Virus record (IMG/VR): IMGVR_UViG_3300045988_028566
Coordinates: 1-6,327 of that record
Origin: a virus
Length of the DNA: 6,327 nucleotides
Reading direction: 5' to 3' (one strand)
Made by a program: the position numbers and the translations under genes
The notes under the pieces: model-generated
What the model was told of the DNA's origin: nothing
Databases searched by the model: none
Seen by the model: only the letters and a program-made list of their open reading frames with translations
In this document: positions 2,800 through 6,327 of the stretch, piece after piece
Layout: each line of letters begins with the position of its first letter
How positions within the stretch are numbered: the stretch's first letter is position 1

Positions 2800-3108
2800 T
2801 TATTTACGTTTATCAATGACTAAATGACGGTTGCGCTCACCAAATGAAATATGAATAAACGTAGGATACAATATAAGTTGATCAAACACATGAACGGTAT
2901 CTGAATAGTTATAGATATGTTCAAGCAACCGGTTATAAGAAGTAGAACCATACGGTTTAATATCAACAGCTTCTCCAACCAAATGTTGTGAATTAGAAGC
3001 ACCTGCAGCAGCTTCATTTTCAGCAATAGAGCGCTTAGCACTTGTTACCGAAAAATGCAAGTTATAACACAACAGGTGCTCAAAAAAGTCCATAAGAGTA
3101 TAATTCAT
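2800..3108 (-). CDS. Minimal M15-family zinc peptidase (Peptidase_M15_3 / D-Ala-D-Ala carboxypeptidase-like), putative endolysin, 102 aa from ATG 3108
   Basis: VTSAKRSIAENEAAAGASNSQHLVGEAVDI matches the M15 core (SGxRxxxxNxxxGGxxxSxHxxGxAxD; H-x6-D encoded at about 2962-2991). A distal FIHISF (2842-2859) supplies the third zinc-ligand His. The tracked 123-aa version starts at a TTG (3171), and its first 21 codons give the implausible LENCDWSCFRCIRLYFKCYRS. ATG 3108 is preferred. Confidence 0.85.
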   Translation of the reverse strand: MNYTLMDFFEHLLCYNLHFSVTSAKRSIAENEAAAGASNSQHLVGEAVDIKPYGSTSYNRLLEHIYNYSDTVHVFDQLILYPTFIHISFGERNRHLVIDKRK

Positions 3109-3188
3109 AGACCGATAGCATTTAAAATATAACCTAATGCAGCGGAAACAGCTCCAATCACAATTTTCCAAATATTAGCACTTTTCAT
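3105..3188 (-). CDS. 27-aa single-pass membrane peptide MKSANIWKIVIGAVSAALGYILNAIGL, translationally coupled to the M15 peptidase
   Basis: ATG at 3188-3186. The TGA stop (3107-3105) overlaps the peptidase ATG (3108-3106) as ATGA. 15 of 27 codons end in T, matching the genome bias, against 9 of 21 in the competing TTG-extended peptidase frame. The layout is an N-terminal Lys followed by about 20 hydrophobic or small residues. It is the tail of tracked ORF 3105-3329, whose upstream part I treat as a frame shadow. Confidence 0.5.
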   Translation of the reverse strand: MKSANIWKIVIGAVSAALGYILNAIGL

Positions 3189-3372
3189 TTCCTTGAGTTT
3201 TAAGTTCAACAAAATCATTTTCTTCTTTAATCGAATCCACAATGACAATAAGGCCCAACGAAGAAATTCGCTCAGAATAATTTCCAAGACCATCGAGAGA
3301 ATTGACAATATAAGGCGAAATAACATCACGACCAGTGATTTTTTCTTTGACTGAAATAATAAATTTCTGCAT
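3175..3372 (-). CDS. Hypothetical protein, 65 aa; first gene downstream of the predicted promoter
   Basis: ATG at 3372 and TAA at 3177-3175. Composition is that of a soluble protein (MQKFIISVKEKITGRDVISPYIVNSLDGLGNY...). It packs tightly against the following genes. I recognise no motif. Confidence 0.6.
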   Translation of the reverse strand: MQKFIISVKEKITGRDVISPYIVNSLDGLGNYSERISSLGLIVIVDSIKEENDFVELKTQGNEKC

Positions 3373-3492: not shown

Positions 3493-3560
3493 AGTTGTGC
3501 GTTTATGGACGAGGGATGGAGAAATCGAGAAGATAACTCGATTTTGCTTCGCACACAACT
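3493..3560 (-). other. Nested stem-loop element: an interrupted outer stem enclosing a perfect 8-bp hairpin
   Basis: Outer stem is 3493-3501 (agttgtgcg) paired with 3550-3560 (cgcacacaact), 9 bp with a 2-nt bulge. Inner hairpin is 3522-3529 (aaatcgag) paired with 3537-3544 (ctcgattt), with the 7-nt loop aagataa (viral sense TTATCTT). The TAG stop of ORF 3559-3927 lies in the outer stem. Confidence 0.5.
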
Positions 3561-3927
3561 AGGGGCTTCGCTTAATTAACAAGAGGATGTATACAGAGGT
3601 GTATAGGCACGGCAGGTCAGATAGAACCTGCCTTTGCGCGCTCTGCGCTAAAATACCGGAGCGGGGCGCTCCTATAAGGAAGTCGCTCCGCTCCATTTTT
3701 AGACCAGGCCCTACGCGGGCGGCGGGTGTATATCGCTCAAACGCCGCGATGGGCTTTAAGTCCTGAAGAATGTTAGGATCTTTGGGATACAATGTGTAAG
3801 TATGCTCATATTTACGACACGTAGGAAGACTAGTCCAATATTCTATCCATTCCTTACACTGATCTAATGTACCAACATTACTAAACATAATTTTACGACC
3901 TACTTTAATACGAAGTTCAAACATCAT
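3559..3927 (-). CDS. Hypothetical protein, 122 aa as an open frame. Only the N-terminal 58 or so codons (3927->about 3754) look like genuine coding sequence.
   Basis: ATG at 3927 and TAG at 3561-3559. By hand count, codons 1-58 have T at the third position in 29 of 58, like the core genes. Codons 59-122 have 11 of 64 and coincide with the GC-rich hairpin island. Confidence 0.5.
   Translation of the reverse strand: MMFELRIKVGRKIMFSNVGTLDQCKEWIEYWTSLPTCRKYEHTYTLYPKDPNILQDLKPIAAFERYTPAARVGPGLKMERSDFLIGAPRSGILAQSAQRQVLSDLPCLYTSVYILLLIKRSP
3598..3754. other. GC-rich hairpin cluster, compositionally foreign; function unknown
   Basis: Four hairpins read by eye. H1 is 3611-3617/3626-3632 (ggcaggt/acctgcc, 7 bp). 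H2 is 3636-3639/3645-3648 (gcgc/gcgc), extendable through ttt/aaa. H3 is 3658-3668/3684-3694 (11 bp with one G-T), plus 4 more bp in the apical part. H4 is 3708-3721/3742-3754 (12 bp with bulges). 3601-3760 is 94/160 G+C against 54/160 in 3761-3920. GGTGTATA occurs at 3598-3605 and 3725-3732. Confidence 0.7.
3658..3700 (+). terminator. Terminator-like hairpin H3, best formed in plus (antisense) orientation, with an A-tract upstream and a T-tract downstream
   Basis: The plus strand reads ctAAAAtacc GGAGCGGGGCG-15 nt-CGCTCCGCTCC aTTTTTag. In minus sense the single G-T pair becomes a C/A mismatch, and the T-run (GGTATTTTAG) sits 4 nt from the stem. No credible plus-strand gene or promoter was found upstream. 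Confidence 0.3.
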
Positions 3928-4087: not shown

Positions 4088-5170
4088 TTACCAGCGGCCA
4101 ACACTATTACCGACACCTTGAAAAATACGGGTGCCATAATCAAAAGCATTACGCAAACCATAAGAATCAAAGTCTTTCTTAGCATTACCAGCAGACCACT
4201 TATAATAGTCACGAATAGCTTTGTCCCTACTATATTGAATACCTTTACGATTATTTACATTCTTATAATCCCATAAAGAATCATAATACTGTGTATAATA
4301 TGCCATATTAGTAGCAGATATAAGGGCATCAGCAGTACCAGCAGCAACCTTATTACTAATATTCTGTCCTTCAGTTTGAGCAGCAAGATTAATAGCACGC
4401 TGAATCTCTGTCTGGACCTGTTTTTCAGTTAAAACACCTTGCTGAACAAGATTATAAAGATATTGGGCCTTCGTAAACAAATCAGCTTGTTGCTGAACAT
4501 CCATATACTTATTAAGAATCGCTTGAGCGTCAGCCTGGAGATAAATTTGAGAAGTCTGAGCAGCAGAAAGCTTTCCAGCCGCAACAGCATTCTCAAGTTG
4601 TTGACGTTCTAATGATTGATCGAGTTCGGCAGAAATACGACCGGTATTCTTATCCCAATAACCAGACTCACCAATACCAATCTGCCGATAATTAGTATCA
4701 CCTTTCATCTTTTCAACCATGTACGGAGTCAAAGCATCTATTTGGTTACTTTCGGAAATAGCTTTCTTCGCCTGAGCAAAACTAGCTAAAGCCGTATCAA
4801 CAGAAGAAAAATCAGGATGAAAAGCCTGATAAGGAATAGGATTAACCGCACTAGCCTGAGCACCACTAGGGGAAGAAACGCCCGAACCAGTCATAGCAGA
4901 AGAACCACTCATAAACGGATTCAAACCACGAGAAATCATAGCTTGCGGAGAATTATACTCACGAGATTCATCAATCATTTTTTCTTGCCAATCACGTTGT
5001 TTTTGAGCTTCTTTCATATTAAACTGATTGGTAGTCTGAGTATTACGAAAATTAGCACGATTCGCAGAAGATTGTTGAAGAGTCCCGAATATACCGCTAA
5101 TAGCAGCACCTAAGAAATGATGCTCATTTCTAGGGGAAAGAATACTTTCCCCTACTTCTAAAAACCTCAT
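4088..5170 (-). CDS. VP2: Minor capsid / DNA pilot protein VP2 (phiX174 H-like), 360 aa
   Basis: ATG at 5170. It has an N-terminal hydrophobic segment (FLGAAISGIFGTL). It also has the VP2-typical EAQKQRDWQEKMIDESREYNSPQAMISRGLNPF region and a long Gln/Ala-rich helical central part. Size and position next to the capsid genes fit. Confidence 0.85.
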   Translation of the reverse strand: MRFLEVGESILSPRNEHHFLGAAISGIFGTLQQSSANRANFRNTQTTNQFNMKEAQKQRDWQEKMIDESREYNSPQAMISRGLNPFMSGSSAMTGSGVSSPSGAQASAVNPIPYQAFHPDFSSVDTALASFAQAKKAISESNQIDALTPYMVEKMKGDTNYRQIGIGESGYWDKNTGRISAELDQSLERQQLENAVAAGKLSAAQTSQIYLQADAQAILNKYMDVQQQADLFTKAQYLYNLVQQGVLTEKQVQTEIQRAINLAAQTEGQNISNKVAAGTADALISATNMAYYTQYYDSLWDYKNVNNRKGIQYSRDKAIRDYYKWSAGNAKKDFDSYGLRNAFDYGTRIFQGVGNSVGRW

Positions 5171-5621: not shown

Positions 5622-6327
5622 TTAATAAGGTAAACCATTTCTATCCAAATTTTGGACAGCATATACCTGGAAATTAACATTACACAATAACTGATCAAAT
5701 GCAACAGAAGAATTCTGGCCTGAAACCTGAGGCTCAAAAATAGAATTCAATTGCTGAGGACGGACTTTCATGGACTGATAAGACCAAGAACCAGAAGAAG
5801 TCAAAACATCCCAACCATCAATAGGAGCGGACCAAGACTGGTAGGCCAGACCAGAACGGAAACCAGCATGAACGGTATCAATATTAGATTTCCATTGCCA
5901 ATAGCGCAAATTATAGCCAATCGAGGCAGGAACAGAACGACTAGGATTATTATGAAGATTCAAGCCAGGAACAGCCTGCATGCCCAATTGGTCAAATGCA
6001 GGTTGAGGAAAGTCAGATATAGAAGAAACGGTCAATTGAGGATTTTGACCTGTCAAATTCCAATCTACCAAAGGGACAGCATGATAAACACAAATAATCA
6101 CCTGATGCTCGGCACCACAATCATAAGTAATAGTATGACCAGAATTAGAACCAACACCTTTACCAGCAATAACAGCCTGAGAATTATCAGCAGTAAGATT
6201 CGTATTAAGAACCTCATTAATATTAATTACACTGGACCAACCACCAATATAGTGAGAATGATTGCCCATATATTCGGGAGCTTTAATACCGAACTGAGCG
6301 GCCATCTGATCTGAATAGTCCTTACTA
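5622..6327 (-). CDS. VP1: Major capsid protein VP1, C-terminal part (216 aa plus stop in 5622-6272). 6273-6327 repeats codons already counted at 1-55.
   Basis: Position 6272 is a first codon position in the frame of the tracked ORF 5622-6305, whose M is an internal Met. The joined gene is 1092+651=1743 nt, giving 580 aa and a TAA stop at 5624-5622. Confidence 0.93.
   Translation of the reverse strand, partial: SKDYSDQMAAQFGIKAPEYMGNHSHYIGGWSSVININEVLNTNLTADNSQAVIAGKGVGSNSGHTITYDCGAEHQVIICVYHAVPLVDWNLTGQNPQLTVSSISDFPQPAFDQLGMQAVPGLNLHNNPSRSVPASIGYNLRYWQWKSNIDTVHAGFRSGLAYQSWSAPIDGWDVLTSSGSWSYQSMKVRPQQLNSIFEPQVSGQNSSVAFDQLLCNVNFQVYAVQNLDRNGLPY
6273..6327. repeat. Terminal redundancy, right copy. 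Duplicates bases 1-55.
   Basis: Exact 55-nt identity with the window start. The capsid reading frame is continuous across the 1/6272 junction. Confidence 0.97.

Follow-up and report, generated by a model that had tools for sequence, protein, structure and literature searches.

A conserved 27-residue membrane peptide encoded beside the M15 peptidase gene of microviruses: a candidate component of a minimal holin-like lysis cassette

The window considered here, i.e., the whole 6,327-nucleotide (nt) stretch of IMG/VR record IMGVR_UViG_3300045988_028566, is a complete circular microvirus genome with every gene on the minus strand. The element under study is an open reading frame (ORF) for a membrane peptide of 27 amino acids (aa; MKSANIWKIVIGAVSAALGYILNAIGL) that runs on this strand from an ATG at 3188–3186 to a TGA at 3107–3105 and ends where the gene for a putative endolysin begins; coordinates and overlap are as given in a preliminary description of this DNA. 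Our comparative data show that the peptide is a genuine gene, linked to the peptidase gene and yet separate from it, and that the bases upstream of it are under synonymous constraint. The features of the locus are the following.

3105–3188, minus strand: ORF of the 27-aa membrane peptide, core of the peptide family described below
2800–3108, minus strand: 102-aa short-form Peptidase_M15_3 (LAS-type zinc peptidase), putative endolysin
3105–3108, minus strand: ATGA overlap of peptidase start codon (3108–3106) and peptide stop codon (3107–3105)
3175–3372, minus strand: 65-aa ORF without Pfam or PHROG match
3189–3326, minus strand: 46 further open codons of the peptide frame on its upstream side, overprinted on the 65-aa gene
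3235–3330, minus strand: zone of suppressed synonymous change, codons 15–46 of the 65-aa gene

The peptide carries the codon signature of the genome, with 15 NNT codons out of 27 (0.556, compared with 0.47–0.61 in the other genes), and its predicted helix, residues 6–27, is rich in Gly, Ala and Ser (8 of 22 residues), both as previously described. The mean Kyte–Doolittle hydrophobicity (KD) of this helix is 1.72, and an insertion estimate of about +1.6 kcal/mol on a simple scale corresponds to marginal insertion. The hydrophobic helix comprises 19–22 residues and extends to the C-terminus (NAIGL-stop) without a tail; both charges (Lys2 and Lys8) are N-terminal, and the peptide has a Trp residue at the interface and a short basic N-terminus. 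Residues G12, S15, A16, G19, N23 and G26 share one face of the helix and span about 100°. In its small size and its predicted transmembrane helix (hydrophobicity analysis) the peptide resembles phage holins, which have at least one such helix, and the Gly/Ala/Ser-rich, marginally hydrophobic composition is a characteristic shared with signal-anchor-release (SAR) helices. The 27-aa core overlaps its neighbors by only 14 nt (the last 14 nt of the 65-aa gene, at the peptide start) and 4 nt (peptidase).

For the comparative analysis, the region upstream of the peptidase was taken from 43 related genomes, which together with the window form a close set of 44, and the ratio of nonsynonymous to synonymous differences (pN/pS) was computed over the 28 genomes with identical geometry; the statistics take related genomes as pairs and columns, without phylogeny. 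The open frame is conserved in these relatives, as the preliminary description requires: both the ORF and the ATGA junction are kept in 44 of 44 genomes, with a peptide of 27 aa in 43 and of 26 aa in one. Across the set, 18 of the 27 residues are invariant, including 7–9, 11–13, 15–20, 22, 23, 25 and 26, and residues 1–5 constitute the most variable segment. The gene exists in 40 distinct nucleotide versions compared with 19 peptide versions, and the codons of invariant residues change freely (GGT, GGC and GGA for Gly12; CTT, TTA, TTG and CTA for Leu18). The Gly and Leu codons preceding the stop likewise change synonymously (GGT/GGA/GGC/GGG and CTA/TTA), while ATGA is invariant. The peptide has a pN/pS of 0.12, compared with 0.27 in the peptidase and 0.33 in the 65-aa gene read in its own frame, and the two other frames over the peptide bases give 1.07 and 4.7. 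Because the frame is conserved in every close genome, its residues stay invariant despite synonymous change, and its pN/pS of 0.12 compares with values of at least 1 in the other frames, we regard the peptide as a real gene; on these comparisons its frame is coding and under purifying selection that is stronger than that on the peptidase. Within clades the helix is near-invariant (pN about 0.03–0.05), more so than the adjoining enzyme, and the clade B peptide (25 loci) has a pN/pS of 0.12 and a pN of 0.027. In clade B the peptide gene (e.g., L113, 908–997) also has a pS of 0.23, half of the 0.45 of its neighbors, which hints at an extra constraint on those bases.

An extension of the peptidase from a TTG codon (123 aa, 2800–3171) was considered and rejected; the frame contains an in-frame stop in one relative (L003) and is the one with a pN/pS of 4.7 over the peptide region, so that this extended frame is not conserved in relatives. 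A peptidase or hypothetical protein of 124 aa is annotated at 638–1012 in PP511323, PP511396 and PP511322 (L053, L054 and L055), with a start 63 nt upstream that takes it over the peptide in another frame. These starts are probably wrong, because the equivalent frame in the clade of the window has the pN/pS of 4.7.

The 102-aa product matches PF08291 (Peptidase_M15_3) with 37.8 bits, against a curated cut-off of 23.2, and phrog_894 (endolysin) with an E-value of 3 × 10⁻¹². S23, R26, H42, D49 and H86, i.e., the SxxR and H-x6-D motifs and the C-terminal His, are invariant across short and long members of the family. Fold matches in a viral structure library are to M15 peptidases (TMq 0.55–0.76); the peptidase model (pLDDT 74) has no significant fold match in the PDB, and a PDB sequence search returned weak matches only (1lbu, E = 0.07). 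With a mass of 11.6 kDa, the enzyme has neither a signal sequence nor a SAR helix of its own. Roux 2012 (PMC3394797) and Kirchberger 2022 (PMC9239249) have proposed that an M15_3 peptidase of Alpavirinae and Gokushovirinae is an endolysin gained by horizontal transfer, and the present peptidase belongs to the same enzyme family. The preliminary description held that the enzyme lacks the usual N-terminal 30 residues or so. The PF08291 match starts at profile position 38 and leaves the N-terminal third of the profile absent, and the additional part of longer relatives is not a membrane helix: distant M15_3 proteins (among 150 representatives at 50% identity) are 125–150 aa long, and the extra 30–40 or so N-terminal residues of the long forms are a soluble segment of the NFxxxEF type rather than a hydrophobic helix. 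Among the best 120 of 1644 peptidase homologs, nearly all have 101–103 aa and a few are called at 97 aa.

A family hidden Markov model (HMM) built from 13 representative peptides scores 38–53 bits in 85 microvirus loci, and each match lies beside the peptidase, as holin genes lie beside those of endolysins, and ends at the stop codon or one residue before it. The next-best scores, of up to 23 bits, are chance matches in bacterial proteins that were fetched by the motif itself, and no score above 12 bits was obtained in 36 double-stranded DNA phage loci with M15 peptidases. The family peptides have 26–30 aa, fall into six sub-lineages and follow one plan, in which Met is followed by 2–10 polar residues with one to three Lys, usually a Trp, and a C-terminal helix with the core (I/V)(I/V)(S/G)A(V/I)x(A/S)(A/L)L(T/G/S)(S/Y). 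Distant microviruses, with peptidases 39–53% and replication initiators (Rep) about 28% identical, keep a homologous peptide with a different junction. By these profile matches the peptide belongs to a previously unnamed microvirus family encoded beside the M15_3 peptidase; such a peptide is not described in Roux 2012 (PMC3394797), in Kirchberger 2022 (PMC9239249) or in the searchable literature.

The peptide lies 5' of the peptidase in clades A–E, where the junction takes several forms: ATGA in L053–L056, L063 and L170–L172, a one-base TAATG overlap in L050, a 3-nt gap in clade B and a gap of 10–11 nt in L047 and L051; in L048 an in-frame peptidase ATG at 682 overlaps the peptide stop. The gene order is reversed in two pig-faeces genomes, MG945328 (L111, 5404–5493) and MG945336 (L112, 5727–5819), in which the peptide (MTKEQLNKISNALCALISAVCAALSYFFS) is encoded downstream of a long-form peptidase of 131–132 aa and overlaps its 3' end. 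Kirchberger 2022 (PMC9239249) placed these two genomes in different microvirus families and reported that they share an exchanged peptidase region of 700 nt. Since the peptide adjoins the peptidase in both, the recombined region probably carried enzyme and peptide together. One clade B copy (L127, 912–1001) is disrupted by a frameshift or a sequencing error.

Upstream of its Met the peptide frame continues for 46–47 codons through the 65-aa gene, a feature that the preliminary description had overlooked. Start codons in the extended frame are an ATG at 3326–3324, which would give a putative product of 73 aa, and a GTG at 3329–3327, which would give 74 aa. The extension is open in all close relatives, where alternate-frame stops occur only upstream of the start, and its conserved residues are M1, L5, L10, L14, I17, W24, L26, L29 and W30. 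Along the 65-aa gene, pS is 0.41 in codons 1–14, falls to 0.14–0.18 in codons 15–46 and returns to 0.36 in codons 47–61, compared with 0.43 in the peptide and 0.42–0.56 in the peptidase as nearby controls. Invariant codon columns make up 15 of 29 in the zone versus 17 of 120 in the controls (Fisher p = 4.7 × 10⁻⁵), and synonymous transversions in the zone are nearly absent. The zone starts at the alternate-frame ATG, which is found in 28 of 28 genomes. NTA codons account for 1.6% of NTN codons in the 65-aa gene, compared with 17–25% in neighboring genes; stop-creating codon choices are almost absent from this gene, and NTG before G, which gives Trp in the extended frame, is common. The chance of the frame staying open is P = 0.017 under genome-wide codon usage, and under the conservative permutation of codons within the ORF it is open in a median of 34% of trials.

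The hydrophobicity of the extension is as expected (the simulated mean KD equals the observed value), because the T-rich wobble bases of the 65-aa gene occupy the second codon position of the extension. An origin of the extension as a by-product of the NNT codon preference was accordingly considered and rejected, as it accounts for this hydrophobicity only and not for the conserved openness or the synonymous suppression, both of which are missing in clade B. In that clade, with the same frame geometry and codon bias, the upstream open length is 13–60 codons and pS in the upstream gene is 0.41–0.54; this control and the sharp boundaries of the zone argue against a purely phylogenetic artefact. 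RNA structure as a cause of the constraint was not detected (z = −0.16), and no Rfam family, promoter or terminator signal was found in the constrained zone. These data make translation of a 73-aa protein probable in this clade; its N-terminal 30 or so residues would be hydrophobic and joined by a Lys-rich linker to the 27-aa helix. All lineages retain the peptide Met, even where a usable extension is lacking (8 open codons upstream in L051 and L052, 13–20 in several clade B genomes and none in L171), so that the short form appears to be the ancestral and general product. Homologs of the 65-aa gene lie upstream of the peptide in clades A–E (e.g., L046, L047, L050 and L051), and this gene could belong to the cassette as a third component, but it is missing in genomes of the MG945328 type and in L171, which has both peptide and peptidase.

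Public gene calls in the peptide frame use many starts and range from 27 to 74 aa (27, 29, 31, 37, 44 and 73–74 in relatives); most are labeled hypothetical protein, and a few carry the automated labels uncharacterized membrane protein HdeD or ThiT component. Gene callers evidently find the start codon ambiguous. An IMG call apparently from this genome (P0399, 3105–3245, minus strand) has 47 aa and starts with LSLWIRL.

We slightly favor the interpretation that peptide and peptidase form a minimal holin-like lysis cassette. A separately initiated, single-pass membrane peptide of about 27 residues would have its N-terminus in the cytoplasm, where, by the positive-inside rule, a basic N-terminus stays. 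The peptide would build up in the inner membrane and self-associate through its small and polar face (G12, S15, A16, G19, N23 and G26); helix faces of small residues are linked to tight helix–helix packing and to pore lining. Since the peptidase has no signal sequence it would need help to reach the wall, and holin-like permeabilization would let the 11.6-kDa enzyme reach the peptidoglycan. The ATGA overlap would tie peptidase translation to peptide translation, and in this clade a start 46 codons upstream would also give a 73-aa isoform with two helices, a Lys-rich loop and the shared C-terminal helix. Possible, although doubtful, is the further-reaching proposal of a true holin–endolysin system, not phiX174-style lysis, in which the smallest known holin (27 aa) and its overprinted 73-aa isoform would form a holin/antiholin pair made from two starts, with one helix in common and translational coupling to a minimal M15 endolysin of 102 aa.

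Several observations weigh against a holin-like cassette. To our knowledge, 27 aa is far smaller than any characterized holin. The hydrophilic, highly charged C-terminal domain of holins is absent, and the HMM alignments end at most one residue before the stop. The peptide family has no Pfam match above cut-off and no significant PHROG match, and hence no described holin family; weak sub-threshold matches of three family members to one common region of the holin family phrog_443 (E 0.012–0.06) are suggestive of holin likeness but non-significant. The near-invariance of the helix is unusual for holins and fits equally well with specific binding to a host membrane protein, and a folded enzyme of 11.6 kDa would not fit through a lesion of the pinhole type. 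Two genomes with the short peptidase, L061 (Microvirus mar63) and L049, have no detectable peptide within the fetched flanks. AlphaFold renders the 73-aa form as one continuous long helix, which is uninformative, and a scan of bacterial genomes for the GAVSAALGY-coding pattern, made as a host search, returned only chance matches in unrelated proteins. We infer topology, oligomerization, hole formation and start codon use, as well as the role in lysis, the latter from neighborhood and composition only.

Among the alternatives, two concern the identity of the product. The preliminary description allowed either for a small membrane protein that stands alone as partner of the endolysin or for a −1 frame difference, real or due to an assembly indel, that separates a SAR helix from its catalytic domain. 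The former is supported as far as sequence goes, by a separately conserved gene that is peptidase-linked in six sub-lineages, whereas our data refute the latter, in which the peptide would be a SAR helix cut off by a sequencing indel or joined to the enzyme by programmed −1 frameshifting into a product of about 129 aa. The Gly/Ala/Ser-rich, barely hydrophobic helix, the coincidence of the peptide end with the peptidase start, and a weak likeness of one family member to the signal peptide model PF19258 (E 0.0075, below cut-off) agree with such a split, but 85 loci preserve both the stop and the frame offset, so that the helix is not covalently part of the catalytic polypeptide as in SAR endolysins, and junctions compared across related genomes are split throughout. 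No fused or SAR form occurs among the best 120 of 1644 homologs, with their 97–103 aa, or among the 150 representatives at 50% identity, and the N-termini of the long M15_3 forms are soluble. The indel version is thereby refuted on sequence grounds, the ATGA junction recurring in 54 loci; the codons ahead of the stop vary, leaving no conserved slippery heptamer, and the lineage-dependent junctions (ATGA, TAATG, gaps of 3 and 10–11 nt) together with the reversed gene order in two genomes make a frameshift fusion untenable, so that we give a split SAR endolysin hardly any credence. It is also unlikely, in our assessment, that the long form is the sole product in this clade, i.e., that the 27-aa ORF is the C-terminal helix of a two-helix protein of 73–74 aa with an internal Met, a possibility that bears on product identity and not on function. 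The open frame and the conserved upstream ATG (28 of 28) or GTG in the close genomes would be accounted for, as would the coincidence of the synonymous suppression with exactly the hydrophobic part of the extension, the low chance probability of openness under genome-wide codon usage (P = 0.017) and the frequent choice of the 73-aa form by gene callers. However, the peptide Met is also kept where no usable extension exists (L051, L052, clade B genomes and L171), the linker is little constrained (pS 0.36), and codon permutation leaves the frame open in the median 34% already given.

Two further alternatives concern function. The helix could act as a protein antibiotic of the single-gene lysis (Sgl) type, binding and blocking a conserved membrane enzyme with which the host builds its cell wall, the peptidase being auxiliary or separate. 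A specific protein–protein interface would predict the near-invariance of the helix per clade (pN 0.03–0.05), the size and single helix recall LysM (PMC12506998), and small phages often overprint lysis genes, as the upstream extension is overprinted here. We nevertheless consider this rather improbable, as independence from a muralytic enzyme is part of the definition of Sgl systems while the peptide is strictly peptidase-linked in either gene order, the helix sequence differs substantially between clades despite presumably similar gut hosts, and no target can be named. Also improbable is a role as tether or regulator, in which the peptide anchors, escorts or times the peptidase in an antiholin-like manner, or a role outside lysis in superinfection exclusion or entry. 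Tight linkage and translational coupling would fit with such roles, as would the lack of a charged C-terminal tail and the marginal insertion (about +1.6 kcal/mol), but nearly all of the peptide would be membrane-embedded and its exposed residues 1–5 are the most variable, which leaves little surface for a soluble enzyme, and with the N-terminus inside no residues would reach the periplasm.

A holin-like cassette of peptide and peptidase can be compared with several known systems. It resembles the lambda S105/S107 and R cassettes in that a small membrane protein is encoded beside a signal-less muralytic enzyme, the genes often being overlapping or coupled. One frame giving two products by alternative starts is a known holin/antiholin device, to which the two putative starts here would correspond. 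The differences are that tailed-phage holins have 60–150 aa, compared with 27 (or 73) aa without a charged C-terminal domain in a 6.3-kb single-stranded DNA microvirus, and that the putative isoforms would differ by a whole helix and loop instead of 2–3 residues; no sequence family match was found. The pinholin S21 68 of phage 21 likewise has a Gly/Ala/Ser-rich helix with small residues on one face, and two helices, as here if the 73-aa form exists; however, the small-residue helix would here be the C-terminal one, and in contrast to the S21 68/R21 pair the enzyme has no SAR or signal helix, so that a pinhole alone would not release it. With phiX174 E and LysM of the single-stranded RNA phage M the peptide has in common that very small phages encode short proteins with an active membrane helix, and the overprinting of E on gene D has a counterpart in that of the extension, whose translation is putative, on the 65-aa gene. 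Protein E blocks MraY and LysM blocks MurJ. Unlike the peptidase-linked peptide, to which they have no sequence similarity, both act without a wall-degrading enzyme, whereas an intact M15_3 peptidase is co-encoded here, in disagreement with single-gene lysis. The view of the preliminary description that lysis would be arranged unlike that of phiX174 E is plausible. The type I toxin peptides TisB (29 aa) and DinQ (27 aa) are of similar size, with a single hydrophobic helix and presumed membrane depolarization, but are chromosomal, controlled by antisense RNA and without link to a wall hydrolase; the likeness is one of mechanism only, and no homology is claimed. LysM has 37 residues (PMC12506998). 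On balance, the peptide appears most like a holin, although lacking two features of the class, the charged C-terminal domain and a described family, and it appears to be neither a SAR endolysin nor a single-gene lysis protein. The M15_3 peptidase was already known as a proposed endolysin, while the adjoining membrane peptide has no description in the searchable literature and the overprinted extension is a new finding.

Microviruses other than the phiX174 group rank with the most abundant phages in the gut of mammals, and the proposed cassette would bear on how they lyse their hosts. A signal-less endolysin needs a route across the membrane, and the peptide is the first candidate component of such a route to be pointed out; a peptide of 26–30 residues beside the enzyme gives a hypothesis of three genes, i.e., peptide, long form and peptidase. 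If the peptide permeabilizes membranes, it would mark a lower size limit for holin-like proteins and would also offer a compact lysis module for genetic use in Bacteroidales or other bacteria of the gut. Computationally, the extension provides a well-controlled example of a probable overlapping gene outside the phiX174 group, which earlier surveys explicitly excluded (PMC9239249). Annotations should also be corrected, as in the GenBank relatives inspected the peptide is unannotated or an N-extended peptidase is annotated over it.

The circular nature of the genome follows from an exact 55-nt direct repeat at the window ends (1–55 and 6273–6327), an overlap from circular assembly; the true genome size is 6272 nt, and the major capsid gene runs uninterrupted across the ends. 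The remaining genes are the following.

Across the window ends, minus strand: major capsid protein
After the capsid gene in gene order, minus strand: 149-aa protein
4088–5170, minus strand: pilot protein, 360 aa
1111–2790, minus strand: replication initiator (Rep), 559 aa

An additional ORF of 122 aa (3559–3927, minus strand), a candidate gene, has no family match; it is found only as fragments with shifting frames in L002 and L003 and has 52% identity over 109 aa in Dulem virus 254 (L001). The nearest public relatives of the genome, at about 75–85% nucleotide identity, are Dulem viruses from lemur faeces, Microviridae from dog faeces and one human isolate.

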